Below, piece by piece: positions 3,554 through 22,654 of a stretch of DNA of 38,198 nucleotides. Each line of letters opens with the position of its first letter. The first letter of the stretch is position 1. The DNA comes from Nitrospirales bacterium (GTDB taxonomy: Bacteria > Nitrospirota > Nitrospiria > Nitrospirales > UBA2166). The position numbers were made by a program, and so were the translations under genes. The stretch lies in contig DTRN01000059.1 of NCBI GenBank assembly GCA_012965905.1, positions 1 through 38,198 of the forward strand, read 5' to 3'. The notes beneath the pieces are model-generated. The model saw only the letters and a list, made by a program, of their open reading frames with translations, ran no database searches and had not been told where the DNA came from.

Positions 3554-3847
3554 TCATGGAATGCCGAGTGTGTCGTCGAGAAACGCGATCACATCGCTCC
3601 AGTATGGATCTCTGACTTCGAAGAACAACCGGTGCCCATCACCAATAATGGCATCCTCTGTGATGTCATTGACTCTCACAAGATGGTGACTGCCACTTGT
3701 TGTCGTAATCTCGACAGTATCGCCCACGTTCAGGGTACTCTCGATGCTCAAGGGGTGCGGATCGATGGGTATCTTCGTCGCGCAGCCCACGGAAAACACA
3801 AGGATCACCATCCCGATACCGAATTGCCTCCATAGCTCTGCCCTCAT
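3554..3847 (-). CDS. small putative lipoprotein, unknown function
   Basis: Internal ATG at 3847 of ORF 3554..4021 gives MRAELWRQFGIGMVILVFSVGC-ATK (signal-like helix plus lipobox-like VFSVGC). The 58 codons upstream look non-coding (Arg/Ser/Gly-rich). No family recognised. Confidence 0.45.
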   Translation of the reverse strand: MRAELWRQFGIGMVILVFSVGCATKIPIDPHPLSIESTLNVGDTVEITTTSGSHHLVRVNDITEDAIIGDGHRLFFEVRDPYWSDVIAFLDDTLGIP

Positions 3848-4140
3848 CACATGCCTACTCTTGGTGATGATCCGCATCGGGTAGGCTGACGGGATCGCGC
3901 ATTTCACCGTTCCAGCGTTACTTCGACGATTTCCTGCGCGGCAACTTCCGCGTAATTCCCTGCCGTTCCAATCTTTCAGGTGGTCTTCAAGGACCTTCTG
4001 GATGTAGTCATTCATGGGCATGCGCTACGGGCATCACGATATCGATAGCCTCGATCAGGGTGGTGCTGTCACACTTCTGTCACATTTGGAAGCCGCAGAC
4101 CGCTTAGAGCAGTACGAGGGAGCGTAAGTTGTTGAATTCA

Positions 4141-4188
4141 TTGGTGGCGGTGGATGGTTTCGAACCCCCGGCCAGCGGTTTATGAGTA
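4141..4188 (-). repeat. Partial copy of the 3' half of tRNA-Met(CAT), from the CCA end to the anticodon; distal att-type direct repeat of the island
   Basis: ttggtggcggtggaTggtttcgaacccccggccAgcggTttatgagt at 4141-4188 matches 16221-16268 (ttggtggcggtggaGggtttcgaacccccggccCgcggCttatgagt) at 45/48 positions in the same orientation. Weaker similarity (GCGTAA...GTTGAA) continues about 20 nt to the left of both copies. There is no 5' half, so this is not a functional tRNA. Confidence 0.8.
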
Positions 4189-4399: not shown

Positions 4400-6544
4400 C
4401 TAGATTCCATCCTTGGAATCTCTGAGCACTTTCGCGTCCTTTTTCTCGAGGGCTTTAGGAAAGGCAAGCAGAGCATTCGGATGGCGTTCAGCAATATTCC
4501 CAACGTGGTAGTTATGGCATGATATACACATGTCTCCAGCTTTTTCGGCCACATGACAAGTCACACAAAGGGACTTCTCTATATGGTTAAAGCTGCTTGC
4601 GAAGGTTTGAGGGTCGTTGTCTTCGTACCCTGCCATCACATCTGCTTCTGAATTCAGAACATGACAAGCGTAACAGCCCCTGTCCCTAACAAGGCTCAAG
4701 TGTGGCGAATGGACGAAGGTCGTGAACTTCTGCACATTTGGCACCGGCTGTGCTGTGTGCCACTTCACTTGGGCTTTTTCCGCTCGACTATCCACACTGT
4801 GGCATTTCATACAGACCCCTGGCGCTTTAGCGCCTGAGAGCGTCGAAAATATCTCGTTCACGACATCCGAAGTAGCTGGCTGCTCTGCCAAAGGCGAGAG
4901 ATCGATCCAGCCACGAATGAACTCATCGGCATGACCGGTCGGACGGAACAGGATGGAAAAGTCCGCATCCTGTCGATACCACCCACCCATCTTGACCCAC
5001 CGTTCGCGATCTTGATCTTTACCCATATTTAGATCTAGCTCTTGCATATCAGACATAGGTACCATTGCATGGGCTCTGTGACTTAGCACTTCGGTCGATA
5101 ATTTTGGCAACCATTCTTGCTGCGCTGCTTGGATAACCTCAATGGGAATATGTCCTGTCAAATTCCCGAGTTTGCTATTGCTGTATGGCTCATTCGCTAT
5201 CTTGCTGAGCCGCGAAACGTAAGCTTCTTGTCCTTTAGAGACCATATCGTAGAACAGCCCCTTTATCGCCCATATAATCTGAGCGATAGCGGCAAGTTCT
5301 TCCTCGGTGGCATCTGATAAATCGGTGAATTCGTCAAAGTCACCGACCGTTTCCAGGTAGTCAACGATAGTCCCATCGGTGTACAATAGAAGCTTCATGA
5401 AGGGGGTCAGGCCTTGTTCGACATTGTAGTCAGCGGGCCATTCTCCGACCGAGATCCCTTGCTCTGTTAGTACGTCAACATCCAATCCTGGAAGTCTGAA
5501 AAAAGGGATGCCTCGTGCCCCTGCCAGACCCTCTCCCTCAATCTGGTGTACATGGCATGCAGCACATGTCGCATCAAATGATCCCACCCGCATGGTTTCG
5601 CCAAGCTGATCCATCATATGGCAGGCCGTGCAAGTGGTCGGGGCCTCATCCTTGAAATCGCCAAGAAAGTGCTTCGCGAGATGGGAATTATGATCAAAGG
5701 CTATTTGCGTACGGCGCTCAGTGGGATAGCTGGAAAACTGTGGATGCCCCTTCGTCAAACTCGAAAACTTTATGATGTGGCAAGTTTGGCAACGCTGGTT
5801 ATCCATAGTCATCAGTTTGAAGTCTCTACCATGATGTTCTGAGTGACACCTTGCGCAAGGCACCTCGCTACCTTCCGTGTACAAGGTCCCTGGAAGCCAG
5901 TCTGATGATGCTAATAAAACCGGGGTCTTCTCAGAGAACGGAGCCTCTTTCAAGCGTTCTGTGATCGAGGTCAAGGCTTCAGTGGACCGACCATGAGCCT
6001 GCAATGGCTGCTCTCCAACTTGATGGCAGCTCAGGCAAAGTTTGCTTCCTTTAGCCTTCGACTCTGAAGCATAGATCGATGCCACCCAACTGATTGGTCC
6101 TTCGTGGGCCGCAGCATGACAAGAGGCACAGTCCTTACCTATAGCACCGTGATTTATGGATAGCTCACCTGGGGAAAAAAACTCTTGCGCATCTGAACCG
6201 AAGAGGACAAGGAGTGATGCCCCAATTGTGAAAGCAACCGTCCAGACCGTGGCAATTCCTCGCTTGGCTCGAAGACTCCTGCTGGGCTGACACTTGGGTA
6301 TGTGTACGGAGCAGGTACCATTCGGAAGGGGGCCCTGGGTACATTTCCCCTTGCGGTCGGAAGAGCGGGTACAAGACCACCGATCGCCATCCTTTAGTGG
6401 GAGGCATTCTGTGGTCGCCAGACATTGCCCGTTCTTGTCAGGGCCAATGTGACAAGCCCAACCCTCGGCAGCCCATCCACAAACCCAGTTCTGGGTTGGT
6501 CGTTCATATTGACTGTTCTTGAATCCATAATCCTGTAACTTCAT
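4400..6544 (-). CDS. membrane-anchored decahaem c-type cytochrome with a Cys-rich N-terminal module
   Basis: Ten CXXCH motifs: CASCH, CLSCH, CARCH, CQTCH, CTACH, CAACH, CMKCH, CYACH, CVTCH, CISCH. There is a haem-free insert of about 200 aa between haems 6 and 7. The N-terminal 85 aa carry 8 Cys, followed by RSLRAKRG and one TM helix (IATVWTVAFTIGASLLVLFG). The ATG lies 2 nt after the stop of the upstream gene. Confidence 0.9.
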   Translation of the reverse strand: MKLQDYGFKNSQYERPTQNWVCGWAAEGWACHIGPDKNGQCLATTECLPLKDGDRWSCTRSSDRKGKCTQGPLPNGTCSVHIPKCQPSRSLRAKRGIATVWTVAFTIGASLLVLFGSDAQEFFSPGELSINHGAIGKDCASCHAAAHEGPISWVASIYASESKAKGSKLCLSCHQVGEQPLQAHGRSTEALTSITERLKEAPFSEKTPVLLASSDWLPGTLYTEGSEVPCARCHSEHHGRDFKLMTMDNQRCQTCHIIKFSSLTKGHPQFSSYPTERRTQIAFDHNSHLAKHFLGDFKDEAPTTCTACHMMDQLGETMRVGSFDATCAACHVHQIEGEGLAGARGIPFFRLPGLDVDVLTEQGISVGEWPADYNVEQGLTPFMKLLLYTDGTIVDYLETVGDFDEFTDLSDATEEELAAIAQIIWAIKGLFYDMVSKGQEAYVSRLSKIANEPYSNSKLGNLTGHIPIEVIQAAQQEWLPKLSTEVLSHRAHAMVPMSDMQELDLNMGKDQDRERWVKMGGWYRQDADFSILFRPTGHADEFIRGWIDLSPLAEQPATSDVVNEIFSTLSGAKAPGVCMKCHSVDSRAEKAQVKWHTAQPVPNVQKFTTFVHSPHLSLVRDRGCYACHVLNSEADVMAGYEDNDPQTFASSFNHIEKSLCVTCHVAEKAGDMCISCHNYHVGNIAERHPNALLAFPKALEKKDAKVLRDSKDGI

Positions 6545-6546
6545 GG

Positions 6547-7386
6547 TTAGGAACTACTCTCCCTGTACGCCGACGCGAGAGCTCCGTGAATCAGTGAGAG
6601 GATTAAAAGGCTGTAGCTCAGGGGAATGTGGATAAAGAGCCAATATTTGAGCACCAGCTGGTGCGCATTGTGATAATCCAGGTCATCTTTGGCCAAAATA
6701 AGAGTTCCAATTTCTTGAGCAATTTTCCGTTCGCTCTCATTGAAATAGCGATCTTGCGATTGCAGTTTGGTCAACAATTCATCACGAGGGCGATGAGACC
6801 CTATCAGATGCCAGAAAAAATTCTTGGGTCCTTCCAAAAAAGGTATCACCTGATTTGTCAAGACACGTCGGCTGGAGAAATCGGCAATCGTTGTGGAACC
6901 CATCTCCGCAGCTGAGCGCACGAGAAGGTCTTCGACGTCCTCACGAAGATGCTTTCGCATCGCTGGAATTCTCTCAAAAATGACCTCTCTACCCCTCATT
7001 GCAAGTCGCCGTGAATACCATCTCGTCAATCCAATTCCTGTAATTCCGCTCCCAGCAACCACCACGTAAAGCAGCGCGAGCGTTCCCTCAATCCAACCAT
7101 TGGGGACATGCAGCCCAATATGAATAGCGAACAGGACAAGAGTGAGATATCCTATGTAAATATGAAATTGCAACCAGCTGGATGAAGTTCCTAAGGGCAG
7201 GAAAGGCAACTTTTTTCGGACATTGTAGCTAGCCAAAGCCAACAGGACAAAGAATAGAAGCCAGCCAGAGAAGAACACCGTGCGATACAGGGTTACAGAG
7301 TAGGCGAAGTGGATTCCGACGATCAGAATAGAAAGAGCACCGCAGATGACAAGATTGCGCCATCGGCGAGATGCAAAGGAGGTCAC
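6547..7386 (-). CDS. 5-TM integral membrane protein with two H-x13-H helices (putative dihaem cytochrome b-like electron-transfer subunit)
   Basis: ORF 6547..7494. The likely start is the GTG at 7386, which overlaps the upstream stop (TAGTG). An ATG at 7455 is an alternative start. Hydrophobic helices: LVICGALSILIVGIHFAY, FFSGWLLFFVLLALASY, WLQFHIYIGYLTLVLFAIHIGLH, GTLALLYVVVAGSGITGIGL and, after a soluble loop of about 130 aa, YWLFIHIPLSYSLLILSLIHGAL. TM3 and TM5 each have two His separated by exactly 13 residues. Confidence 0.8.
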   Translation of the reverse strand: MTSFASRRWRNLVICGALSILIVGIHFAYSVTLYRTVFFSGWLLFFVLLALASYNVRKKLPFLPLGTSSSWLQFHIYIGYLTLVLFAIHIGLHVPNGWIEGTLALLYVVVAGSGITGIGLTRWYSRRLAMRGREVIFERIPAMRKHLREDVEDLLVRSAAEMGSTTIADFSSRRVLTNQVIPFLEGPKNFFWHLIGSHRPRDELLTKLQSQDRYFNESERKIAQEIGTLILAKDDLDYHNAHQLVLKYWLFIHIPLSYSLLILSLIHGALASAYRESSS

Positions 7387-9098
7387 TAATTGGGTCCGTT
7401 CGATAGCGAAAATAAATCTGACATATCTATCCGCTGTAAGGCGTCGTGGGGACATGCGCGTTGGCAAGCCGGCCCACCCAGCTGGTCCACACAAAGATCA
7501 CACTTCGTAGCTTTCAAAATGGGAGCGTGGGTGCGCTCGTCGAGAATTAGGTGTCCGTTCTCATCGCGAATGTCAACCATCTGAATGTTGTCATACGGAC
7601 AGCTATTCGCACAGGTGCTACAACCTACACAAGTGGTGTCGTCGATGACAACGTGCCCGTGAAACCCCTCACGGTGGATTGCCCCTGTAGGACATCCAAT
7701 GAGACAAACAGGATCGACGCAATGCATACACGCATTGGCTATCAAATACTTGCCATCCCGCTTGCCATGCCGGGTGAAACGGGGATTATTTTCGTGAGCG
7801 GTAGCACAGGCACGCACGCAATCATCACAGCCAGTACAGCGATCGAGATTGATCATCATGGTGGACGTGCCGTTGATAAACCGCTCATCCACAAGGAATT
7901 CCAGGAAGTCTGGATCAATTCTCCTTTCGTGTTCCCGATCCCTTTGCACGGGAACATGCCTGGTATTCGAGGGGACAAGCGGTCGGAGTTGCGCAGATGG
8001 TAAAGAGGGAAGCACCAAAGATTCAATCACGTGAGTTGGTACCAAGAGAATGTCCACGTATCCAATAGCACGCAGCGTGTGCTTAAGGGATATCCGGGCT
8101 TCGCTTTGCCAATTATGCTCGATTTCTTCAAGGCCGTAGATCTTGCCTCGACCAAGGTAAGTGAGCGTGCGGTGTCCGTGCCCGAACTGCTGACTCAACC
8201 GTACGAATCCAGAGCGAATCAGAATTAATCCATTGGGATAGTGCCCTTCTTCCGCAATAATCGGCTCGTGATCCAGGCGTTCCGCCGCACTGCGACTCAT
8301 GATTGCCTTATACGGACCATACCAGTCGAAATCCCCATAGCTCTGGAATTCAACTTGATTAGCCACCTCTTCCAACTGCTCCAACGTCAGGTGCTGGAAG
8401 AGCGGCGTTTGTAGAAGGTGGACTTTCAGGTTCCTTTCACGATAGCGAGCGTCAATATCTTCCTTCAACCGCTGATCAAAGAGGCGTAAGCGCCTTAGTC
8501 CTTGCCAGCGAATTTCCAAAAGCTCTGTCTCTTGGTCAGCAACAATAGTGGCGGTCCGGGCAACGCGACCAAGTGCAGAGATTTCTCCAAACAGGTCTCC
8601 CACTTCTATTCGGTTGGTTTCATACTCCCCCAGAATTACGGGGAGGTCTTGCAAAAACACATGAGCATTCCCCGCTTTGTCATATCTGGTTTTGACCCGG
8701 GAAACCCCTGTATCTGGCGAAAGAGTGCGTTCTTCCGGCTGCGTGGGATTGCGCCATAACTGGGCGATGGCATTGAACAAACCTTTTCTCCGAGGCTCTT
8801 TTCGGCCCAAGATCGACTTTGGTAGATTGAGGAAAACCTGGACTGATCCGGACATGATAAAGTATGCAGAGTTTCCATAATCGCCTTCTCGCACCACAAT
8901 GTCCCCCGCTCGGTACCGAAGAATGCGAGTGTCATTCAGCAGGATCTCTCGTAACGGAGCGTGGGAAGGAAATTTCGCCGGGTCCATATGGCTGAAAGGA
9001 GGGAATGTTAAAACTCTATCGACATCCTCTTCACTCGTTTCATGACTAAACGGCATATCCAAACGAGCAGGACGTTGGATGCGTACATTCAGTGTCAT
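7386..9098 (-). CDS. cytoplasmic fusion protein: two cyclic-nucleotide-binding (cNMP/CAP-effector-like) domains plus a DmsB/NrfC-type four-cluster [4Fe-4S] ferredoxin domain
   Basis: ATG at 9098 with an AGGGGG RBS. First cNMP domain: ILRYRAGDIVVREGDYGNSAYFIMSGSVQVF ... FGEISALGRVARTATIVADQETELLEI. Second, more divergent cNMP-like barrel: GLILIRSGFVRLSQQFGHGHRTLTYLGRGKIYGLEEI. The C-terminus has 16 Cys in four motifs: CTGCDDCVRAC, CMHCVDPVCLIGCP, CVGCSTCANSCP, CDLCVDQLGGPACQRACP. There is no twin-arginine signal at the N-terminus. Confidence 0.88.
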   Translation of the reverse strand: MTLNVRIQRPARLDMPFSHETSEEDVDRVLTFPPFSHMDPAKFPSHAPLREILLNDTRILRYRAGDIVVREGDYGNSAYFIMSGSVQVFLNLPKSILGRKEPRRKGLFNAIAQLWRNPTQPEERTLSPDTGVSRVKTRYDKAGNAHVFLQDLPVILGEYETNRIEVGDLFGEISALGRVARTATIVADQETELLEIRWQGLRRLRLFDQRLKEDIDARYRERNLKVHLLQTPLFQHLTLEQLEEVANQVEFQSYGDFDWYGPYKAIMSRSAAERLDHEPIIAEEGHYPNGLILIRSGFVRLSQQFGHGHRTLTYLGRGKIYGLEEIEHNWQSEARISLKHTLRAIGYVDILLVPTHVIESLVLPSLPSAQLRPLVPSNTRHVPVQRDREHERRIDPDFLEFLVDERFINGTSTMMINLDRCTGCDDCVRACATAHENNPRFTRHGKRDGKYLIANACMHCVDPVCLIGCPTGAIHREGFHGHVVIDDTTCVGCSTCANSCPYDNIQMVDIRDENGHLILDERTHAPILKATKCDLCVDQLGGPACQRACPHDALQRIDMSDLFSLSNGPN

Positions 9099-9130
9099 AG
9101 CATCGTACCCCCTATCTAAATTTATCGATC

Positions 9131-10189
9131 CTATTTTCCAGGCGGAGCTTTCCCGGGTTTTCCTTTGTACTTATCGGCTGTGGGAAGTACCTTGTCTATT
9201 GCTGCCCACTCGCTTCCGTCGTAGTTATTCGCTACCTTTTGAGCGACAGCCCGAATTTTGTCGGCTGCTGGCGTAATCTGGGCTTCTTGGTTGGCGCCCA
9301 ACTTGACCTTTGCAGCAATGGCCAACATTTCCTTAAGTTCAGAAATTGTGACGAGCCCATGAATTTTTTTTAATTTACCCATTGCTTTCCCAACGCGCTT
9401 CACCATCGCCTCCAAGAATGTACCTTTCTCGGTGGCCTTGGACAGGGCACGGAGGCTGTACTCCAAGTCAAGTGACGCTCCAACCACGTATAACATCCGT
9501 TTACGCTCAGACGAAGCTTCCGTGTTCTTTTTTCCTCCCGAGCTGAAAAAATTATGGCGGACTTCGCCTTGCGACCACGCTACGAGATCAAATTCGCTCC
9601 CTGCTTTATGTCCTCCTACGTTGACCAGATGCTCGTTTGGTATCGTGTGACATTGGAAGCAGTTCGCCGCTAATCGGTAGAGTTCAGGAGGTCGGATCAT
9701 GCCGGAGGCCTTTATCGCTGCCAAGCGTTTAGCCTTGTGTTCAGGGGTTTCCATCTCACGTGTGACTGTCTTACCCCCATAATCACTGTGCACTTTAAGC
9801 CAATCCTTCGCGGGACCATGACAGGACTCACAACTAATTCCAACAATCGCCTTGCTCTTCCCTTTCTTGATGCCCGAGGTGAAGTGGCAATTCAAACACG
9901 CGCTGTCCTTTTTCATGCGTTTGACGCCCAGCTTTTCTGCGACCTCCTTGGCCTCTTTCTTACGCGGCAATTCTTTAAAGCTCCTGGAATGTTTGGTTTC
10001 TCTCCAGGTGTGCACCTCAGCCTTATGGCATTCGCCACATTCCTTCGGTCCCACGATTTTCTTGGGATCTTTTTCAGGCATGGCATTGGATTCAACACCC
10101 GATCCCGCCGCCAATAAAAGGACGATGGCTCCAATGGCAAGTCCTACCCATCCTAGCCATGATTGACCCCGTTCCTTGACTTGGTTCAT
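9131..10189 (-). CDS. secreted tetrahaem c-type cytochrome (c554-like multihaem family) with a helical, Lys-rich C-terminal half
   Basis: ATG with a GGAGGAG RBS. Signal or anchor segment WLGWVGLAIGAIVLLLAAGSG. Four CXXCH motifs (CGECH, CLNCH, CESCH, CFQCH). About 150 aa of haem-free C-terminus ending KYKGKPGKAPPGK. Confidence 0.9.
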   Translation of the reverse strand: MNQVKERGQSWLGWVGLAIGAIVLLLAAGSGVESNAMPEKDPKKIVGPKECGECHKAEVHTWRETKHSRSFKELPRKKEAKEVAEKLGVKRMKKDSACLNCHFTSGIKKGKSKAIVGISCESCHGPAKDWLKVHSDYGGKTVTREMETPEHKAKRLAAIKASGMIRPPELYRLAANCFQCHTIPNEHLVNVGGHKAGSEFDLVAWSQGEVRHNFFSSGGKKNTEASSERKRMLYVVGASLDLEYSLRALSKATEKGTFLEAMVKRVGKAMGKLKKIHGLVTISELKEMLAIAAKVKLGANQEAQITPAADKIRAVAQKVANNYDGSEWAAIDKVLPTADKYKGKPGKAPPGK

Positions 10190-10261
10190 GTTTTACTCCT
10201 CCATTTAGACCATTGCGGCAATTCGCTTCCTACTCGTTCAGGGATTTCCTGCGCGAATCCG

Positions 10262-11569
10262 TCATGCATCTAGCGTCACATGCCCTTTTGGTATGGCTAT
10301 GCAAGGGAAGCAAGAGCCGGCCTCGGGTGCAACACCAGGCTCAGTCATGTAGGTGACGTCCCCTGCTTTAATTGCAGTGAGACATGTCCCGCAACTGCCA
10401 GCACGGCAGCCGAAGTCAATTTGGACAGCGTTCCCTTCAGCAAGCTCTAACAGCGAACCGTGCTTTTGATCCCATTGGCATCGTTTCCCTGTTTTCGAGA
10501 AAAAGACTTCAACTTGCGTTGCATCAGCTAGTCGTGGTGGTGGCGCGGCAGTCTTTTTTACCGTAGCCGAGCCAAAGGCTTCAAAAAAGATCTTGTCCTC
10601 TGGAATCCCCCACACCTTAAGTTGCTTGGTCAACGAGTCCATCATCGCCGGTGGCCCACAGAGGAAGAACTCATAATTGTTAGACGGTAATAGGCCTCGT
10701 AGCAAGTCCACGCTGACCCGTCCCGAATGATCGTAATCCTCCCCAATCACATCCGCGTCAGAAGGTTGGCTATAGCATACATGCACGTGCACATTGTGAT
10801 ATTGGCGATTCAGTTGGGCCAGATGATCCTTCATAATATGCTCGGTACCATTGGATACCCCATAGAATAACCATACCTCACGGGTTGTAGCAGCACCCTC
10901 AGTAATACTGTTGAGCATGCTGAGAAGGGGTGTGATGCCTACACCACCCGCAACAAACGCAACTGGAGCGGCGCTTGTCAGATCGAGAAAAAACTTTCCG
11001 CTCGGCGCTTTGACGTCGAGGATATCACCTTCCTGGAGATGATTGTGAAAGTACGAGGAGACCAATCCTGCCGGCACATCTGGGTTATCGCTTGGTGAGA
11101 GTTCCCGTTTAATGGTGATGCGGTAATAGTCTGATTGAGTGGGGCTGTCGGAGAGGGAATAACATCGCACTACCGGTTTTGTGGTGTCGGGAATATGAAG
11201 CTTAAAGACTAAGTGTTGGCCAGGTTGGAAGCGAGGTAGCGGCTTTCGATCATGAGGTGCAAGGTAGAATGAATAGACATCGTGACATTCACGTACTTTT
11301 TGCCGAACCACGAATTTTCGGAACCCTCCCCAAAATCGTTTTTCGTCTTCCTGCCCAACTTTAAGTGTTCTGGCAGCTTCTACCCGACAGCGCAACAACT
11401 CTAGCGCTAGAGTGCGTCGTTGTCGTTCATAGGTCACACGATGCCATGTAGAAACCAAGAATAGGACTACTTGCGCCAAGAGGGCGCCAATAATTATTAC
11501 GCCAATGGTCTGTACTATCACTGCCACGAGCTTAAGCCCTGAGATAGGAGGGGCATCTTTGCGCTCCAA
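10262..11569 (-). CDS. membrane-anchored ferredoxin-NAD(P)+ reductase-type flavoprotein with a C-terminal plant-type [2Fe-2S] domain
   Basis: N-terminal TM helix (LKLVAVIVQTIGVIIIGALLAQVVLFLV). FAD motif RCYSLSD. NAD(P)H motif GGVGITPLLS. FLCGPPAMM. C-terminal CRAGSCGTCLTAIKAGDV...C (CX4CX2C...C). The start codon is non-ATG (TTG at 11569, or GTG at 11527), so the 5' end is uncertain. Confidence 0.85.
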   Translation of the reverse strand: MERKDAPPISGLKLVAVIVQTIGVIIIGALLAQVVLFLVSTWHRVTYERQRRTLALELLRCRVEAARTLKVGQEDEKRFWGGFRKFVVRQKVRECHDVYSFYLAPHDRKPLPRFQPGQHLVFKLHIPDTTKPVVRCYSLSDSPTQSDYYRITIKRELSPSDNPDVPAGLVSSYFHNHLQEGDILDVKAPSGKFFLDLTSAAPVAFVAGGVGITPLLSMLNSITEGAATTREVWLFYGVSNGTEHIMKDHLAQLNRQYHNVHVHVCYSQPSDADVIGEDYDHSGRVSVDLLRGLLPSNNYEFFLCGPPAMMDSLTKQLKVWGIPEDKIFFEAFGSATVKKTAAPPPRLADATQVEVFFSKTGKRCQWDQKHGSLLELAEGNAVQIDFGCRAGSCGTCLTAIKAGDVTYMTEPGVAPEAGSCFPCIAIPKGHVTLDA

Positions 11570-11609
11570 TCAAAAAGTTTGCAAAAGAGAATCAGGCGGC
11601 GACGTTTCG

Positions 11610-11625
11610 AGCAACCAGCAGCCCA
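11610..11625 (-). promoter_or_regulatory. candidate sigma-54 (-24/-12) promoter upstream of the reductase/tetrahaem/FeS/b-type/decahaem genes
   Basis: The minus strand reads TGGGCTGCTGGTTGCT, matching TGG-N8-TTGC-W of the consensus TGGCACG-N4-TTGCW with correct spacing. It lies about 40 nt upstream of the TTG start at 11569, inside the only long (227-nt) intergenic gap of the cluster. The match to the CAC part of the -24 element is poor. Confidence 0.3.
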
Positions 11626-11796
11626 TCAAAATGTATATGGTGCCCCGAGCGATACGTCGGCCGTCAACTCAAACTGTTTCACGTGAAGGTGGCTGGTTGG
11701 CAATTAAATAGGACCCTCGAGTATGCTGGCGGCTTAAAAGTGCTTTTGGCTGCTACTCCCGGCACGGTCCTTAGCAATCAATAGCACCTTCTATTT

Positions 11797-13302
11797 TCAA
11801 AACTTCATGAGTAATTCGAGGCGGGCACCATAGCTTAGATTGCGATCTTCCTGCTTTTCACCAAAGAAATCAACTCGTGGGATAAAATGGTGGCCGATTG
11901 CATGTTGATAACGTGCCGCCGCAGCAATGGCGCCTCGGTTAGACAATGGAGTTCCAGTGACCGTATTCTTGCGGCCTCCTACTTCCATCACAAGCTGCCG
12001 ACGGCCGCCATGGAAAAACATTTGATGTCCCAAGCTTCCGCCTGCCGAGTCATCAGCCTGGTTGCTTAGTACAGGTCTAAAACGCCCAAGCCCTACGGCT
12101 TCAAACAAGATACCAGTCCGGCCTAATGGTCCCCCTTGATCAGGGCCACGAATCGCTGAGGAGAACTGATCAATCCCCCAGTATCCATTGAGATAAACGA
12201 GATTGTGGGTGCGTGGTGGTGTAAAGGAAACCTGGCCAGATAACAGTGTTCCTCGGCTCGTTTGTTGCGTCTCTAGATCCGAGGGTATTGATGTATTAAC
12301 CGCCAAAGTCGTATTGAAAAACCCAAATCGCTGAACTCCTTGAATTCCTGCGAAGTACGCGTCACCTGTCACATCACCCGACTCGATGTACACTAGATCT
12401 ACGGAAATTGTGCTGAAAGGAAAATCTGTTTCAGTAAACAAACCGAATAGCTGTGCTTCGCGATCGAGGCGATTATCGTCTCGGTATATGTTGTCCCAGC
12501 CGTAGAGGGCAGTGAGGCGGGCATTCGATGTTCCTGGAAGCTGGAGGTTGTTGCGGACCAAGCCGACGGCGTCAGTATTTCCAAGCCCGCCGGTGCTTAT
12601 TAAGAGACCTTCCTGGAAAAGTAGTGGTTGACGACCGACGGAAAACCCGATATCCAGTGCCCTAGTGTCGCCTTCGTCTAGGCCAGGGAATATCTCGCCA
12701 AAATCTCCTTCAAAGAACAATGTTCTTACCACAGCGTTGAGCTCATCCTCAAAATCTTTCTCTGGCTCAAAGAGATTCCCACTGAATCGATTATCACGAT
12801 CCAGGGGACGAAATGCGACGAGGATGCGTTCCGTACCCGATAACTTCAGATTGCCGAAAATGTCGAGGCGATTAGCCCATTCGGATGTACGAGTGTCATC
12901 GGGCATTTCACCACCCGCCATAAAACCACGCTCAAATGTTTGTACCGCCGTTCGGTATTCCCCGAATACCCATAGGGACGGCCGCCAGACGGCACCAGTC
13001 GGGAGTGTGAATTCTGGACCGAGTGCGCCGGAGTCTAAAAACCTATCCCCAAATTCCAAGAACAACCGGGGCCTTTGGGGAACTTCTTCAATCTGAAGAG
13101 GTAGGGATTCGTCGGACAACCGACTTGCTGATTCGTCCTTTGATTCTTCCTGATGCTTGTTGTCGTCTTCGCTTGTTGCACCGCTCGCTTGCGACTCTGC
13201 ATGAAAGGCGCTGACCTCTCCCACCCCCAAAACCGGAACAGCCGCGAATAACAAGCAGGCGTACACGGCAACAAGGAAATGTACTGATGCCCGGTTATTC
13301 AT
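11797..13302 (-). CDS. putative outer-membrane beta-barrel (porin-like) protein
   Basis: Signal peptide MNNRASVHFLVAVYACLLFAAVPVLG. An acidic linker, then about 400 aa rich in alternating aromatic/Gly/polar beta-strand patterns. C-terminal ...YGARLELLMKF ends in Phe, as in the OMP beta-signal. No CXXCH. Family not recognised. Confidence 0.65.
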   Translation of the reverse strand: MNNRASVHFLVAVYACLLFAAVPVLGVGEVSAFHAESQASGATSEDDNKHQEESKDESASRLSDESLPLQIEEVPQRPRLFLEFGDRFLDSGALGPEFTLPTGAVWRPSLWVFGEYRTAVQTFERGFMAGGEMPDDTRTSEWANRLDIFGNLKLSGTERILVAFRPLDRDNRFSGNLFEPEKDFEDELNAVVRTLFFEGDFGEIFPGLDEGDTRALDIGFSVGRQPLLFQEGLLISTGGLGNTDAVGLVRNNLQLPGTSNARLTALYGWDNIYRDDNRLDREAQLFGLFTETDFPFSTISVDLVYIESGDVTGDAYFAGIQGVQRFGFFNTTLAVNTSIPSDLETQQTSRGTLLSGQVSFTPPRTHNLVYLNGYWGIDQFSSAIRGPDQGGPLGRTGILFEAVGLGRFRPVLSNQADDSAGGSLGHQMFFHGGRRQLVMEVGGRKNTVTGTPLSNRGAIAAAARYQHAIGHHFIPRVDFFGEKQEDRNLSYGARLELLMKF

Positions 13303-13349
13303 GGGTCTTGGTTGTTAATTAGAGAGACGGTATGGACGCAAAGCCCTGG

Positions 13350-15164
13350 TTAATATTGGTTCTTGTGAACATCATGAACATCAAAGGCTATATCACGCTC
13401 CCATAGCACCACATGTCCAGCTAACACCCCATCCGCAACTTTCCTAGGGCTCATGCCGTAGTCAAAGCCAACATCTTTGATCTCGTTGATCAAATTGACC
13501 GGCACCATACCGACAATCAACTCAATATGAGCTTTGTAAGGTCCCCTCAGGGTCAACGCTAACCCTTCCACCTCATATGTCGCCCACCGACTGCCGTTGG
13601 GTTCGATCATCATCCGATGTTTTCGCACATTGACTGGGCGTCCGATTAACACATTGGACTGTGTTAAAGGACGCAAAAATGGTAGCGGATCAAATGATGT
13701 GTTGACGGATAATACCTGCTCGCTCTCACTTCCACGGAGATTTCGTGTAATAAATTTAGACTGAAGATTGAACAGATATCGATCAAGAGGCAGTTCACCG
13801 TTGTGCACGTAAACAGAGTGAATATCCCGCAGATCTCCGTTTGGGTCGGCATCTCCAGATTTGAAAACAGAGGTGCCATCCCGATCCGAAACCGTGACGC
13901 GCAGATAGACAAGACGCTCGGCGTCAAAGCCCGTAGGCACGCCGTGTCCATCCGTCCCACTTTTCACCTGCACTCGGAAACGGAGACCATCTCCATCCGC
14001 CTGATCAGTCACGATCTTGCCAAGTCGGAACCCTTCCTGCAACACCTTTTTCCTTTGCAAACCATACTCATCTAATAATGCAAACTGATCGTCAAGAATT
14101 TCACGAGCATCATAGCGGTCGTCTGTAGAAGACCATCGATCTGGAAACGCGTCATCGTCAGGATCCTGGTCTTCAAACTCGTCTGTTCCCCAACCAGCCT
14201 GATGATCGAAGGCTAGCCATTCCCGAATAGTCGCGAATTCCGCAGCGTCTATATTGTGCGGGAAAATCCCGGGATGTATGACAGAATGGTCGGGCCCAGG
14301 GAACATGTGATTGGTGCGTTTCCGAGATCTGGTTTCTACCCCACCCACTCGGGCGGCAGATGCATGAACATAGCCCGATGACTTTCCCGGCTTCCGGCCC
14401 ATATGGCAGTCCTGACAGGTGATTCCCTGCCTGGCAGCTGGCGAGGTCTTATATTCGCTGAAGGCTTCTTCCAGCCGGAACCCGTTAAGCAAGTTTACGT
14501 CATGGCATGAACCGCAGAATCCCGGTTCGCTCAGCGACGGAAAAAGTTTCACCTCACCGTGGATGGCTCGTCCGACTTCGCCGCGTTCTGGATTGACCTG
14601 ATACTCGTCACTTCCTAACACACGCTTGAGCTCCTCGTTGCCTTTGGGGCCATACACTGGGTCAAATAGGTCGCCTTCTACAATCTTGAGGCGTCCACTC
14701 TCTTTCCCGTAGGCTTGATCAACTCGATGGCAGACGACGCACGTGATGCCTTCACGAGAAGTAGGATGTCGGTCGATGTTGCTCATAAATAGGGGTTCCC
14801 CCAAATTCATTCCTACTTGAGTATGACAGCGAATGCAGAAGTCCCCATTGGTACCGTTGGTGAGCTTAAGAATGGTGCCGTGCATCGCGTTGAACACCGG
14901 GCTCATCTGCGCATATGCATGAGGAGAAACCGACCACTCTCGGTAATGATCCGCATGACATGTTTGACACGTTGAGGCTGATGGGTAACGGTTTTCCAAG
15001 AATAATTTTTCATGGGCAGCTTCGGCTGATTCTTCTAGAGTTTCTGAAGATTCCTCCTGAGATAACGCCATATCGATATATGCGAAGCACAGCACCCCTA
15101 TCAGAAGCAAAACCAAGGGAATCCCAATGCGCCTGGAAAGCACTATCAAACTTGTAAATGCCAT
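13350..15164 (-). CDS. secreted pentahaem c-type cytochrome with a large haem-free C-terminal domain
   Basis: ORF 13350..15170. The ATG at 15164 is preceded by GGGAGG. Signal-like segment IGIPLVLLLIGVLCFAYIDMALS. Five CXXCH motifs in the first 260 aa or so (CQTCH, CIRCH, CVVCH, CGSCH, CQDCH), then about 340 aa without haem motifs. Confidence 0.9.
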   Translation of the reverse strand: MAFTSLIVLSRRIGIPLVLLLIGVLCFAYIDMALSQEESSETLEESAEAAHEKLFLENRYPSASTCQTCHADHYREWSVSPHAYAQMSPVFNAMHGTILKLTNGTNGDFCIRCHTQVGMNLGEPLFMSNIDRHPTSREGITCVVCHRVDQAYGKESGRLKIVEGDLFDPVYGPKGNEELKRVLGSDEYQVNPERGEVGRAIHGEVKLFPSLSEPGFCGSCHDVNLLNGFRLEEAFSEYKTSPAARQGITCQDCHMGRKPGKSSGYVHASAARVGGVETRSRKRTNHMFPGPDHSVIHPGIFPHNIDAAEFATIREWLAFDHQAGWGTDEFEDQDPDDDAFPDRWSSTDDRYDAREILDDQFALLDEYGLQRKKVLQEGFRLGKIVTDQADGDGLRFRVQVKSGTDGHGVPTGFDAERLVYLRVTVSDRDGTSVFKSGDADPNGDLRDIHSVYVHNGELPLDRYLFNLQSKFITRNLRGSESEQVLSVNTSFDPLPFLRPLTQSNVLIGRPVNVRKHRMMIEPNGSRWATYEVEGLALTLRGPYKAHIELIVGMVPVNLINEIKDVGFDYGMSPRKVADGVLAGHVVLWERDIAFDVHDVHKNQY

Positions 15165-15507
15165 TGGCAACCTCCCTGAAAATCAGGACTGAAAGACAGT
15201 TTTAGTTATTTTTGGCAATAAATTATGAGCGTCTTCTTTTTTAAAATCAAGTTATGGCGTTGTTGCATAATTCTAAAACCCACTACACTTTCGACCGTTT
15301 GTGTATGCTCAGAGAATCCTCTCTGACACCGCCTCCGTCTATTCGATAGGTCAGAAATCCAGGGAACCAGCGGGCCGTGGTGCCCGCCTCGCGATCAATG
15401 ACGCGCCAACTATACCCGATAACAGTAGGCATTCTCCGAGCTTTAGCCTGTGCACGAAAAAAAATACGCTTGATCAGGGCCGAGTGGAGTCCATAGCATC
15501 AATATGA

Positions 15508-16207
15508 AGAAGGAAGCTCAACTCCATTAAGACAGCAGACCTGGAAGAAGCGAGGAAAGGTTTGTTTGCCAACAAGCTTACCCTTCAAAGGGTCAACCGA
15601 TATATGGCTAGGTTGCCGTGTAAGCTGAACCTGGCGGTTCGTGCTGGTAAATTGCACGGCAACCTAGTGACGAAGCTGAAAATGTATAAGGAGCCTCAAG
15701 GGAAAACGAGATTTCTCTCACCCGAGGAGGAGTCCAAGGTAATGGCCGCACTAGGTCCCATATATGGCCATTGGGTGGGGTTGGCCATTCACACGGGTAT
15801 GAGACAGGCGGAGCAGTTTTCATTCTGATGGGAGAATGTTGATCTGGAGCGCAGGATCAATACGCTACCAGTACTTCTATGCACGTAGCTGGATGCCTGC
15901 AGTGCAGGAGGGAGGGATTGAGTGGATAACGTGGCATGATCTACGCCATACGTTCGCGTCTCGCCTGGCTATGAGTAGTGCGACTGAGGAGACGATAGCC
16001 GCCCTCATGCGCCATAGTAGTAGTGCATTGGTAAAGCGATATGCACATTTTTCGCCGTCGTATCTCCAGGAAGCCGTTGAATGGGTATCGAGCTTTGGTC
16101 GGGCCACGAACTCAGCAGAACGTGCGCCGCAAGAAGACCCGATTTCAATCCTAACCGTGACTGAGACCAGAATAGCAGGGGATCAGGAGAAGGTGGACGT
16201 TGCGTAA
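15508..16207 (+). pseudogene. tyrosine recombinase (phage-type integrase) remnant: N-terminally truncated, with an in-frame stop, an internal deletion and a frameshift
   Basis: Frame 1: ...LQRVNRYMARL..NLAVRAG...FLSPEEESKVMAAL...LAIHTGMRQAEQFSF-TGA-WENVDLERRINTLP. The frame then switches to frame 2: ...AVQEGGIEWITWHDLRHTFASRLAMSSATEETIAALMRHSS..LVKRYAHFSP. Catalytic Arg (TGMR), HxxR (HDLRH) and Tyr (RYAH) are recognisable. Only about 45 aa separate Arg-I from HxxR, where about 100 or more are expected. The open frame starts only at 15508. Confidence 0.8.
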
Positions 16208-16221
16208 ACCGTTGAAAAGAT

Positions 16222-16297
16222 TGGTGGCGGTGGAGGGTTTCGAACCCCCGGCCCGCGGCTTATGAGTCCGCTGCTCTACCAACTGAGCTACACCGCC
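16222..16297 (-). tRNA. tRNA with CAT anticodon: elongator tRNA-Met, or possibly tRNA-Ile2 (lysidine); not an initiator
   Basis: The reverse complement GGCGGTGTAGCTCAGTTGGTAGAGCAGCGGACTCATAAGCCGCGGGCCGGGGGTTCGAAACCCTCCACCGCCACCA folds as a cloverleaf: 7-bp acceptor stem, GCTC/GAGC D stem, anticodon loop CTCATAA, GGGGG/CCCTC T stem, encoded CCA. G1-C72 is paired and there is no GGG/CCC anticodon stem, so it is not tRNA-fMet. Confidence 0.9.
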
Positions 16298-21319: not shown

Positions 21320-21742
21320 TCACTCCCCAAGCAGCTGAATCACGATTTCTCGCGTTCGTGGGCGGGTGTCGAAGTCTATGATGACGATTTGTTGCCAGGT
21401 TCCTAGGGTCATGGCGCCGTCATTAAATGGGATGGTTACCGATGGCCCTTGCAGTTGTCCTCGTAGGTGACTGTGGGCGTTGTCTTCGCCTGGGTTTTGG
21501 GTGTTGTGTTGCAGGGTGGGATCTGCCGGGATTAACCTTTCCATAAAAGCTTTGGTGTCGGCGCGAATTCCTGGCTCGTCCTCGATGATCATGACGGCGG
21601 CCGTCGTGTGTTTGACGAACACGGTGAGAATGCCGGCTTTGAGTCCGGATTGACTCAGGATCGTCTGAATTTGTGACGTGACGTTTTCAACCTGGGTGTC
21701 CCCGGTCATGTTGAGACTGATGCTGGAAGTCGTAACGGCCAT
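21320..21742 (-). CDS. YjbQ/UPF0047 family protein (secondary thiamine-phosphate synthase-like)
   Basis: 140 aa. TVFVKHTTAAVMIIEDEPGI ... DNAHSHLRGQLQGPSVTIPFNDGAMTLGTWQQIVIIDFD...R matches the conserved YjbQ core. The ATG overlaps the upstream stop (TGATG). Confidence 0.85.
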   Translation of the reverse strand: MAVTTSSISLNMTGDTQVENVTSQIQTILSQSGLKAGILTVFVKHTTAAVMIIEDEPGIRADTKAFMERLIPADPTLQHNTQNPGEDNAHSHLRGQLQGPSVTIPFNDGAMTLGTWQQIVIIDFDTRPRTREIVIQLLGE

Positions 21743-22653: not shown

Positions 22654-22654
22654 G

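Follow-up and report, generated by a model that had tools for sequence, protein, structure and literature searches.

PtdE of a Nitrospirales ptd operon joins tandem cyclic-nucleotide-binding domains to a sixteen-cysteine ferredoxin domain and may be a gated electron wire

We have found that the open reading frame at positions 7386-9098, on the minus strand of a 38,198-nucleotide stretch of Nitrospirales DNA (the window), is by gene order and domain content PtdE of the ptdABCDEFG operon. Its role as a wire, which would carry electrons from the flavoprotein PtdC to the membrane protein PtdF and outward to periplasmic and outer-membrane cytochromes, is well supported. That its tandem of cyclic-nucleotide-binding (CNB) domains gates this flow is what we infer from the sequence, and we regard the complete reading, i.e., an outward wire with a regulatory gate, as evenly poised.

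The operon had already been named in a preprint on marine oxygen-deficient-zone Alphaproteobacteria, which also reported it in Nitrospirales, Planctomycetes and Gammaproteobacteria, raised a possible link to the nitrogen cycle and called its function "completely unknown" (bioRxiv 10.1101/2023.11.21.568154). The gene order given there is pentahaem cytochrome, porin, FAD/NAD(P) oxidoreductase, tetrahaem cytochrome, CNB plus Fe-S protein, ferric-reductase-like transmembrane protein and decahaem cytochrome. Positions 4400-15170 of the window (minus strand) fit this order gene for gene, with CXXCH counts of 5, 0, 0, 4, 0, 0 and 10 and with agreeing Pfam content. The first-pass annotation, made from the letters of the window, had pointed to the conserved neighbours as a check; they prove to be those of a named seven-gene operon, an identity that it had missed. 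The genes are as follows.

4400-6544, minus strand: ptdG, membrane-anchored decahaem cytochrome c whose N-terminal domain, conserved and cytoplasmic, has 8 Cys (motifs, TM helix)
6547-7386, minus strand: ptdF, 5-TM membrane protein, putative di-haem cytochrome b (His conservation, weak Pfam matches)
7386-9098, minus strand: ptdE, 570-aa cytoplasmic protein with tandem CNB domains and a predicted four-[4Fe-4S] ferredoxin domain (ORF, Pfam)
9131-10189, minus strand: ptdD, exported tetrahaem cytochrome, c554-like (4 CXXCH, hydrophobic N-terminal segment, Cytochrome_C554 E=2e-15)
10262-11569, minus strand: ptdC, NAD(P)H/FAD oxidoreductase with an N-terminal membrane anchor and a C-terminal [2Fe-2S] domain (Pfam, Hmp reductase-domain model)
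11797-13302, minus strand: ptdB, outer-membrane porin candidate (signal-like N-terminus, C-terminal …LLMKF, counterpart in the preprint); its product has no Pfam match
13350-15170, minus strand: ptdA, exported pentahaem cytochrome (5 CXXCH, Pfam)

The ptdE gene is real. An ATG-started ORF of 570 aa occupies exactly the coordinates first proposed for it, a Shine-Dalgarno sequence, AGGGGG, precedes the ATG by 9-14 nt, and the plus-strand frame across the same positions is riddled with stops; the strand, left unstated in the first-pass annotation, is minus. A Nitrospirales MAG encodes a protein with 100% identity to the product, and full-length homologues occur in many phyla at 53-63% identity. 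Conservation was counted in 109 close homologues (from Nitrospirota, Planctomycetota, Verrucomicrobiota, Poribacteria, Zixibacteria and Proteobacteria) and in a separate set of 30 members of divergent subfamilies. The AF2 model (pLDDT 79.7, pTM 0.79), the Pfam matches and the conservation divide the protein as follows.

9048-9077, minus strand: conserved N-terminal motif, residues 8-17, consensus I-x-RPQRWD-x-PF (109 sequences)
8424-8966, minus strand: CNB-A, residues ~45-225, canonical barrel with hinge helices (PF00027, Foldseek, conservation)
8667-8831, minus strand: insertion of ~55 aa in the beta4-beta5 loop of CNB-A, residues 90-144, with conserved LAQLWxNPxxPEVR (Pfam split, conservation)
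8538-8591, minus strand: phosphate-binding cassette (PBC) of CNB-A, residues 170-187, FGEISALGRVARTATIVA (conservation in 109 homologues)
8004-8423, minus strand: CNB-B, residues ~226-365, CNB fold whose cassette, YG[FL]xE…SLRA, is degenerate and lengthened (PF00027, conservation)
7872-8003, minus strand: variable linker and conserved pre-ferredoxin helix (…LEFLVxxRFINGT), residues 366-409 (AF2, conservation)
7413-7871, minus strand: ferredoxin domain, residues 410-562, with Cys groups I at 7806-7838, II at 7689-7730, III at 7596-7631 and IV at 7449-7502

PtdE has exactly 16 Cys, and all of them fall within four motifs: C421-X2-C-X2-C-X3-C431 (group I), C457-X2-C-X4-C-X3-C469-P (II), C490-X2-C-X2-C-X3-C500-P (III) and C533-X2-C-X8-C-X3-C549-P (IV). 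All 16 are invariant in the 109 close homologues, and each is kept in at least 29 of the 30 divergent sequences. They would suffice for four [4Fe-4S] clusters, whereas the preprint (bioRxiv 10.1101/2023.11.21.568154) speaks of "two 4Fe-4S clusters". Pfam families Fer4_7/9/10/11 match over residues 410-560 (Fer4_11 with 36.1 bits against a cut-off of 26.2), and the best PDB matches are HycB3 (7qv7, E=7e-20, residues 418-562), HycB4 and FHL HycB. The first-pass annotation had quoted the same four motifs as the 16-Cys pattern of CISM beta subunits, and all of them can be read in the sequence; its more specific assignment to the DmsB/NrfC type holds for the superfamily pattern but not for the kinship. 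Actually, PtdE scores far below the NCBIfam equivalog cut-offs of DmsB (66.7 vs 214.1), NrfC (35.9 vs 377.6), HybA (50 vs 263), FDH-beta (41.3 vs 334.7) and also HydN (65.8 vs 260), and NCBIfam and PDB place it nearest to the HycB/HydN/AegA-N type. The context of a DmsB/NrfC-type protein, i.e., an adjacent Mo/W-bisPGD subunit and Tat export, is likewise absent, and the exported neighbours are c-type cytochromes. No ORF for a molybdopterin alpha subunit exists in the window, just as had been said; what had been overlooked is that the flavoprotein PtdC would functionally replace it.

The four-group 16-Cys pattern and the Fer4_11 fold are thus common to PtdE, the HycB/HydN/HycB3-HycB4 polyferredoxins and the CISM beta subunits (DmsB, NrfC, FdnH, NarH, PsrB), and in NarH-NarI and FdnH-FdnI the wire adjoins a di-haem membrane subunit, as PtdE adjoins PtdF. 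Unlike HycB and the CISM beta subunits, PtdE is without a molybdo- or hydrogenase partner, its input would come from a flavoprotein, a sensor region of 400 residues precedes its wire, and it is not a Tat substrate.

Neither a Tat consensus (no RR in residues 1-60) nor a hydrophobic, Sec-like N-terminal segment is found in PtdE, which agrees with the earlier claim that it lacks a Tat signal, and no hidden signal peptide was found. Without an export signal, and with every Cys in the ferredoxin domain, the protein is predicted to be cytoplasmic. The missing signal had been taken as a peculiarity, but it is not unusual in itself, because the Fe-S domain is nearest to the HycB/HydN/AegA-N type, whose members are likewise cytoplasmic. 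The N-terminal motif is strongly conserved instead (P10, R12, W13, D14 and F17 each in at least 90% of the 109 sequences).

In the whole protein, PF00027 matches in three stretches with 77.1 bits against a cut-off of 27.5 (E=1e-21). Scanned alone, CNB-A reaches 56.7 bits; its match is interrupted by the insertion of ~55 aa, and when this is deleted in silico a single stretch over profile positions 3-85 of 89 results. CNB-B alone is borderline at 27.4 bits (E=3.3e-6), and its sole PDB sequence match is Crp (4ev0, E=0.14). These scores bear out the original description of one canonical cNMP barrel and a second, degenerate one. The segment then quoted as PBC-like corresponds to residues 170-187 and reads FGE-x8-RTAT, equal in length and key residues to the cAMP/cGMP-binding consensus. 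E172, R178 and R181 are present in 109/109 sequences and G171 in 108/109, while residue 182 is T in 93 and S in 6, and T184 is kept in 104. That is, the canonical phosphate and ribose contacts of CNB-A occur in all close homologues, and the domain is not degenerate. The GDxG motif in its beta2-beta3 loop (G72, D73, G75) is at least 90% conserved, and E195, R197, W198, Q199 and G200 of the hinge are invariant. The insertion has low AF2 confidence (pLDDT 54-67) and conserved residues Q113, W115, E122 and R124, and is a candidate docking surface. In CNB-B, G322 (108/109), E325 (101/109) and R343 (107/109) are conserved, but a canonical cassette is lacking across the 109 sequences: F or L follows G322, the helix is lengthened, the canonical Arg position is variable, and R343 stands at another position. 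Between the tandem and the ferredoxin domain, residues 378-388 of the linker have a pLDDT below 50, and E400, F401, L402 and N409 of the following helix are conserved.

Foldseek with the tandem returned PKG I-beta and PKA-R structures (4z07, 6rsx, 1cx4, 1rgs and others, E from 7e-16 to 1e-11), aligned over ~350 columns in the same A/B arrangement. The regulatory subunits of PKA and the corresponding region of PKG also have two consecutive CNB domains, and their CNB-A cassette equals that of PtdE in length and key residues. PtdE differs from them in having no kinase partner, no inhibitor or pseudosubstrate and no dimerisation-docking segment, in the degenerate CNB-B and in the 55-aa beta4-beta5 insertion; in PtdE the domain under control would be one for electron transfer. 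No kinase domain is found in the PtdE or the ptd cluster of the window, and the N-terminus bears the family-specific RPxRWDxPF instead. Outside fusions with this ferredoxin the tandem is essentially absent (226 clusters at E<=1e-30, most of them of 540-610 aa). The preprint proposed no role for the CNB domains (bioRxiv 10.1101/2023.11.21.568154), whereas we propose a regulatory one.

The same domains could instead be a fixed adaptor for docking, dimerisation or assembly that does not respond to a ligand, with PtdE as a constitutive wire. CNB-B is degenerate in every homologue, the conserved insertion with its own motif resembles a protein-protein surface, and neither a nucleotide cyclase nor a phosphodiesterase linked to the cluster was found in the window or in four Pfam-annotated neighbourhoods. 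Also, the PBC Glu is lost in 6 of the 30 divergent members (kept in 24) and the Arg in 5 (kept in 25), while the domain is retained, and because of this retention the tandem has a ligand-independent structural role as well. Against a scaffold alone, Glu172 and Arg181 are universal in the close set and G171 and T/S182 nearly so, despite the overall identity of only 53-63% across phyla, and such retention of the PBC is hard to explain without selection for the phosphate and ribose contacts. Moreover, FHA domains have been gained independently in some PtdE lineages, in some cases N-terminally and in others between the two CNB domains, and at one Planctomycetota locus FHA is present in PtdC as well as in PtdE, with a Ser/Thr kinase adjacent. 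The repeated gain points to a signalling role of the sensor half, and together with the neighbouring kinase it argues, at the level of sequence, that PtdE is a control point. We therefore consider the purely structural explanation rather unlikely.

The partners of the wire are consistent over 82 loci from many phyla, at which PtdE occurs in 82, PtdF in 78, PtdG in 76, PtdD in 74, PtdC in 72, and PtdA and PtdB in 31 each; most absent genes are contig-end cases. While the preprint describes marine or saline habitats, the core PtdC-(D)-E-F-G is here also common in Verrucomicrobiota from soil, groundwater and freshwater, often without PtdA/PtdB. PtdC usually lies just upstream of ptdE; it has FAD_binding_6, NAD_binding_1 and Fer2 domains, a TM helix at residues 21-39 and an E-value of 1.5e-74 with an Hmp reductase-domain model, and it would be the electron donor to PtdE. 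On the other side ptdF adjoins ptdE in 78/82 loci, and in the window the stop codon of ptdE and the GTG start of ptdF overlap (TAGTG). PtdF has two HX13H pairs, in TM3 and TM5 (His codons 7162-7164, 7120-7122, 6628-6630 and 6586-6588), and the four His are invariant in 77/77 and 64/64 sequences, which suggests a di-haem cytochrome b. Its Pfam matches, to di-haem b families, are weak (DUF4405 in 37/64, Ni_hydr_CYTB in 12/64 and Ferric_reduct in 5/64 members), and its AF2 model (pLDDT 90.9) has no match in the PDB by fold (best E=0.44), nor does its sequence. Two natural proteins, P0254 (843 aa) and P0304 (856 aa), are in-frame PtdE-PtdF fusions. These fusions and the haem-ligand-type His support the first-pass proposal that the wire feeds a membrane relay. 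PtdG, in which CXXCH occurs ten times, has a TM helix at residues 97-115, and its N-terminal domain carries all 8 Cys in 76/82 loci.

Based on the above analyses, the following mechanism can be proposed, in which we infer cofactor occupancy, ligand identity, gating and, by thermodynamic reasoning alone, the direction of flow. Membrane-anchored PtdC would oxidise NAD(P)H and pass electrons from FAD to its [2Fe-2S] cluster, then to the four [4Fe-4S] clusters of PtdE and to PtdF, whose two bis-His b haems would be stacked across the membrane. From there electrons would reach PtdD and PtdG, the multihaem cytochromes of the periplasm, and also PtdA/PtdB at the outer membrane in those clusters that have this pair. 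Such an outward route would not require the quinone pool, at the cost of NAD(P)H and membrane potential. A 3',5'-cyclic nucleotide bound at the fully canonical cassette of CNB-A may act via the hinge and CNB-B to alter the exposure of the ferredoxin domain or its docking to PtdC or PtdF, and thereby electron flow might be switched on or off post-translationally.

Quinones, rather than cytochromes or in addition to them, might be the partners with which PtdF exchanges electrons. PtdC/E/F would then be a non-pumping NAD(P)H:quinone oxidoreductase with quinol-fed cytochromes, or the flow could run inward, from an extracellular or periplasmic donor to NAD(P)+ in lithotrophs (Nitrospirales, Nitrospinota, Zetaproteobacteria). 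Di-haem b subunits beside four-cluster ferredoxins (NarI, FdnI) are quinone-reactive, the cluster is present in nitrite and iron oxidisers, and the nitrogen-cycle link raised in the preprint would fit. On the other hand, heterotrophic Verrucomicrobiota and Planctomycetota commonly have this core too; inward flow would run against the membrane potential and uphill to NAD(P)+ with no coupling subunit in the cluster; and the TM-anchored multihaem PtdG always follows PtdF, suggesting that haem b passes electrons directly to haem c. Overall, we think quinone-linked or inward flow improbable.

The outward route has known parallels. In sulfate reducers, TmcABCD, HmcABCDEF and DsrMKJOP join a periplasmic multihaem c, a membrane b and a cytoplasmic Fe-S protein into one trans-membrane path. 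Ptd has the same three-part layout, but their membrane subunits are not homologous to PtdF (which has no PDB sequence or fold match), and their cytoplasmic Fe-S proteins are HdrD-like rather than four-cluster ferredoxins and lack an NAD(P)H flavoprotein or sensor domains. In NADPH oxidases and Fre-MsrQ-MsrP, electrons pass from NAD(P)H via flavin and two b haems (four His on two helices) to an acceptor on the outer side, and in NOX5 a Ca2+-binding regulatory domain switches the flow. Ptd differs in having an Fe-S wire in between, in being divided over separate proteins and in its proposed ligand, a cyclic nucleotide in place of Ca2+; the match of PtdF to Ferric_reduct is weak and limited to few members, and PtdF has no structural match.

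More tentatively, PtdC-E-F(-D/G) could be a second-messenger-gated electron-export valve, a quinone-bypassing counterpart of the regulated NADPH oxidases that adds FHA phospho-threonine signalling in some lineages and travels as a self-contained mobile cassette; we hold this for possible but doubtful. If true, NAD(P)H electrons would go straight to periplasmic or extracellular acceptors, PtdF would be a new type of di-haem membrane protein, and PtdE would provide the first example of a cyclic nucleotide that controls an Fe-S electron wire directly and allosterically. Gating of CNB-A or CNB-B by something other than cAMP or cGMP, e.g., a nucleoside, another nucleotide or a redox metabolite, seems very improbable to us, for although CNB folds differ in what they bind, Foldseek also matched nucleoside-binding PKA-R structures of trypanosomes and the remodelled CNB-B cassette has its own conserved E325 and R343, the CNB-A cassette equals the cAMP/cGMP consensus residue for residue in length and key positions, and known non-cNMP binders have lost the Arg and/or the Glu.

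The ptd cluster of the window lies on a 12-kb tRNA-Met island, the boundary features of which are as follows.

4107-4187, no strand assigned: left direct-repeat copy, a duplicated 3' half of tRNA-Met, island boundary (repeat family D1)
16187-16267, no strand assigned: right direct-repeat copy (repeat family D1), overlapping tRNA-Met (16222-16297, minus strand)
15836-16207, plus strand: integrase remnant just inside the right repeat

The two D1 repeats are 81 nt long with 80% identity, and their tRNA-derived 48 nt differ at 3 positions.

The ptdE gene is an open reading frame of 570 codons at 7386-9098 on the minus strand, with an ATG start and an AGGGGG ribosome-binding site upstream of it; the plus-strand frame of the same interval is riddled with stops. 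The first-pass annotation had reported here, without giving the strand, a cyclic-nucleotide sensor joined to a four-cluster ferredoxin, and this observation has been confirmed, on the minus strand. In Pfam searches, the cNMP_binding profile matches three stretches of the protein (E=1e-21), and 4Fe-4S dicluster families match across residues 410-560. Taken as separate fragments, the first cyclic-nucleotide-binding domain (CNB-A) scores 56.7 bits against a cNMP_binding cut-off of 27.5, and the second (CNB-B) scores 27.4 bits (E=3.3e-6), right at the cut-off. The CNB-A match is split by an insertion of ~55 residues, and when the insertion is removed in silico, a single match runs unbroken from profile position 3 to 85 (of 89). 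PtdE has 16 cysteines in total, every one inside the four cluster motifs listed in that annotation; a twin-arginine motif and an N-terminal hydrophobic segment are both absent, and a search of the protein for a hidden Tat or Sec signal or a transmembrane helix found none; and no ORF of the window is a molybdopterin enzyme. An ORF at 24539-26251 (minus strand), also of 570 residues, has been rejected as a PtdE paralogue: it shows no similarity and is PGI-like, lying in a pentose-phosphate gene group (6PGD-like, RpiB), and the shared length is coincidental.

We have modelled PtdE with AlphaFold2 from 109 homologues (pLDDT 79.7, pTM 0.79), which come from Nitrospirales, Planctomycetes, Phycisphaerae, Verrucomicrobiota, Poribacteria, Zixibacteria and Proteobacteria and have an overall identity of only 53-63%. 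The model matches the tandem CNB-A/B of PKG I-beta and of many PKA regulatory subunits over ~350 aligned columns (Foldseek E~1e-15). The phosphate-binding cassette of CNB-A is the following:

PtdE residues 170-187, FGEISALGRVARTATIVA: CNB-A phosphate-binding cassette

The phosphate-binding residues expected of a canonical barrel are in place. In the alignment of the homologues, Glu172, Arg178 and Arg181 occur in 109 of 109 sequences and Gly171 in 108; at position 182, 93 sequences have Thr and 6 have Ser. The beta2-beta3 GDxG signature is likewise conserved. We consider it probable, judging from these sequences, that CNB-A binds a cyclic nucleotide. Because the RTAT cassette is common to cAMP and cGMP binders, the preference for one or the other would not be readable from it. 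The window protein itself has Ala180, where 99 of the 109 have Pro; its residues 557-570 (7386-7430, minus strand) end in …DLFSLSNGPN, unlike the family consensus …LAxWLNR, and Trp568, present in at least 90% of homologues, is missing.

The second domain has the fold and lacks the canonical cassette. Its helix is lengthened, Phe or Leu follows Gly322, the canonical Arg position is variable, and the two conserved residues Glu325 and Arg343 lie away from the canonical sites; by sequence alone, its sole match among known CNBs is Crp 4ev0 (E=0.14). In addition, in a divergent set made of 29 members at 30-45% identity plus the window protein, the cassette Glu is found in 24/30 sequences and the Arg in 25/30, so some lineages have dropped cassette residues yet retain the domain. 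The strongest rival to ligand sensing is that the CNB tandem serves as a ligand-independent scaffold. Both the degenerate CNB-B and the loss of the cassette in some lineages speak for it, and against them has to be set the near-invariant CNB-A cassette of the 109 homologues. Another rival, that the ligand is something other than a cyclic nucleotide, has to be weighed against that same cassette. When the sensor half alone (residues 1-405) is searched, it retrieves 226 clusters at 50% identity (E<=1e-30), most of which are 540-610 residues long; that is, the tandem CNB is essentially only found fused to the ferredoxin.

In this ferredoxin, the 16 cysteines are invariant in the 109-sequence alignment, and at least 29/30 sequences of the divergent set keep them. 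It matches best the polyferredoxins HycB3 and HycB4 (hydrogen-dependent CO2 reductase) and HycB (formate hydrogenlyase), with ArrB, NarH, FdnH and NrfC/PsrB next, and the NCBIfam matches, including the AegA N-terminus, DmsB and HydN, are all well under the equivalog cut-offs. The domain belongs to the four-cluster superfamily and lies outside every named subfamily. The earlier label of a DmsB/NrfC-type protein is therefore right for the superfamily and too specific within it, as the nearest relatives are of the cytoplasmic HycB type. Since these relatives are cytoplasmic, the missing Tat signal, which had been presented as an oddity, is expected.

PtdE is the fifth product of a seven-gene run, whose features and surroundings are the following:

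15170 down to 4400, minus strand: ptdA-G gene run, seven genes
ptd gene 1: pentahaem cytochrome
ptd gene 2: porin-like protein, without Pfam match
ptd gene 3: membrane-anchored FAD/NAD(P)H oxidoreductase with a C-terminal [2Fe-2S] domain
ptd gene 4: tetrahaem cytochrome, c554-like
ptd gene 5: CNB and Fe-S protein (PtdE)
ptd gene 6: five-helix membrane protein; ptdF, 6547-7386, minus strand, 279 residues, GTG start at 7386 overlapping the ptdE stop (TAGTG)
ptd gene 7: decahaem cytochrome
15836-16207, plus strand: integrase remnant just inside the right repeat, possibly together with 15562-15828
16222-16297, minus strand: tRNA-Met at the right repeat

Gene for gene, this run is the ptdABCDEFG operon (bioRxiv 10.1101/2023.11.21.568154), which that preprint reports from Alpha- and Gammaproteobacteria, Nitrospirales and Planctomycetes with a function it calls "completely unknown". 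High transcription of the system has been reported from oxygen-deficient zones of the ocean. The preprint is the only description of it that our full-text literature search found. A Verrucomicrobia porin-multihaem cluster (PMC5615132, PMC6344600) is distinct from Ptd, its cytochromes being octahaem, and a paper on subsea-tunnel nitrifiers mentions just unassigned multihaem clusters. The window PtdE is identical to a protein from a Nitrospirales MAG. As the architecture already stands in the JGI annotation and the protein has been named, the locus itself is not new. Beyond the preprint, we count four clusters where it has two, and we add the strict CNB-A cassette conservation, a defined PtdCDEFG core with wide non-marine spread, the di-haem signature of PtdF, PtdE-PtdF fusions, a link to FHA domains and a kinase, and the island context.

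The operon lies between two copies of an 81-nt direct repeat (4107-4187 and 16187-16267) that duplicates the 3' half of the tRNA-Met, the tRNA-derived 48 nt differing between the copies at three positions. The 12-kb interval holds ptdA-G and the integrase remnant, nothing else, and its GC is ~0.50 as against 0.52-0.56 outside. It is an integrative island with the ptd operon as its only cargo. This context fits the patchy, cross-phylum spread of the cluster and shows seven genes that apparently travel as a self-contained unit. Just beyond the left repeat, an ORF of 155 aa at 3554-4021 (minus strand) has a lipoprotein-like VGC motif and no Pfam match; a tblastn search of the 82 related loci found nothing that corresponds to it, which places it outside the Ptd system.

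Full-length PtdE homologues are present in at least 80 species-level genomes in a scan of species representatives, and among the pattern matches listed, 517/600 have been confirmed as relatives. The carriers are Nitrospirota, Nitrospinota, Planctomycetota, Verrucomicrobiota, SAR324, Alpha- and Zetaproteobacteria from marine and also soil or freshwater habitats. Since many of them are Verrucomicrobiota from soil, groundwater or lakes, the system is not confined to saline habitats. For synteny, we have searched 82 loci (80 from the species representatives and two from the assembly collection) with tblastn, which found PtdE in 82, PtdF in 78, PtdG in 76, PtdD in 74, PtdC in 72, and PtdA and PtdB in 31 each; contig ends account for most of the missing genes. 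PtdE, PtdF and PtdG are neighbours in the same direction, and PtdC is immediately upstream. According to these counts, the conserved unit is PtdC-(D)-E-F-G, and PtdA/PtdB form an optional outer-membrane module.

The membrane partner PtdF has four histidines that never vary among its homologues (77/77 from the loci, 64/64 from databases). They make up two HX13H pairs, one on the third transmembrane helix and the other on the fifth. In known di-haem cytochromes, this arrangement ligates two b haems stacked across the membrane. Pfam-type models match the 64 members weakly (DUF4405 in 37, prokaryotic cytochrome b561 in 12, ferric-reductase in 5). The AlphaFold2 model is confident (pLDDT 90.9), with five transmembrane helices and a helical domain of 120 residues; among PDB structures nothing matches it significantly (best E=0.44), and the PtdF profile found nothing among PDB sequences. 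PtdF may be a new class of trans-membrane cytochrome b. The positive-inside rule puts its N-terminus and helical domain on the cytoplasmic side, which the natural in-frame PtdE-PtdF fusions fit: in P0254 (843 aa) and P0304 (856 aa), PtdF follows directly after the ferredoxin domain. P0320 is a further, truncated fusion, and P0286 and P0253 are apparently frameshifted or garbled forms of the junction. These fusions argue for a physical contact between the two proteins.

Cofactor-binding motifs, cellular sides, synteny and fusions are direct observations, and PtdE is very likely the electron wire from PtdC to PtdF. Electrons would pass from NAD(P)H to the FAD and then the [2Fe-2S] cluster of PtdC, through the four [4Fe-4S] clusters of PtdE to the two b haems of PtdF, and on to the haems of PtdD/PtdG and optionally PtdA/PtdB. 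Outward flow is favoured, being downhill in potential and along the membrane potential. A complex that runs inward, or is linked to quinone, is an unlikely rival. Electrons moving inward would have to climb against both potentials, and none of the genes in the cluster encodes a coupling subunit. A switch on the outward path from NAD(P)H would make sense, since this path uses up both reducing power and membrane potential. On the model of PKA regulatory subunits, a cyclic nucleotide bound to CNB-A would move the invariant hinge (E195, R197, W198, Q199, G200) and CNB-B, and this movement would change how readily the PtdC [2Fe-2S] domain, or PtdF, reaches a terminal cluster. Such gating by a cyclic nucleotide is a tentative proposal, about which we are somewhat doubtful; for the mechanism as a whole, we see belief and doubt in balance.

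We have also looked for signalling inputs. Some PtdE homologues have one or two N-terminal FHA domains, in others (P0282, P0329, P0381) the FHA domain is an insertion that separates CNB-A from CNB-B, and further variants have unclassified extensions or insertions of 150-550 residues. In one Planctomycetota locus (MAG JAJDCR010000063, 4778-8742), PtdC, like PtdE, has its own N-terminal FHA domain, and a divergently oriented gene upstream encodes a Ser/Thr protein kinase of 600 aa, which suggests phospho-dependent control of the electron-input module PtdC/PtdE. Together with the FHA variants, this locus indicates that signal-input domains have repeatedly gathered on the cytoplasmic electron-input subunits. 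Searches of the window and four other neighbourhoods found no nucleotide cyclase or cNMP phosphodiesterase domain; a 'Cyclase' match (PF04199) in the homologous locus L002 is one that we take not to be a nucleotide cyclase. The window has one HD-domain protein of unclassified function (21742-22773), ~12 kb from the cluster. By Rfam, no riboswitch or other RNA element lies near the ptd cluster, only two tRNAs.

Electron-transfer chains are usually controlled via gene expression or substrate supply, not by ligand switches on the wire. Unlike characterised systems, PtdE is a HycB/DmsB-superfamily wire bearing a PKA-R-like sensor, a flavoprotein stands where those systems have a catalytic alpha subunit, and PtdF fits no solved family. 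Ptd resembles Tmc/Hmc-type trans-membrane redox complexes in function, and regulated NADPH oxidases and Fre-MsrQ in logic, and is a member of none of them. Proteins in which a four-cluster Fe-S wire carries a canonical cyclic-nucleotide sensor form a large and widespread family. If the wire is gated, this would explain how cells can block, for as long as they have no use for it, a potentially wasteful exit of electrons from NAD(P)H, and it would offer a direct biochemical handle on the Ptd system, so far unexplained.

The decahaem cytochrome PtdG has, ahead of its single transmembrane helix, a cytoplasmic N-terminal domain (residues 1-95; 6260-6544, minus strand) with eight cysteines in the pattern YERPNQxWxCG…C…C…C…C…C…C…C. 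Conserved in 76/82 loci, it is the best-conserved portion of PtdG, and it may form a site for a metal or an Fe-S cluster that faces the cytoplasm. The RPxxxW motif with which it opens is similar to the conserved N-terminus of PtdE.
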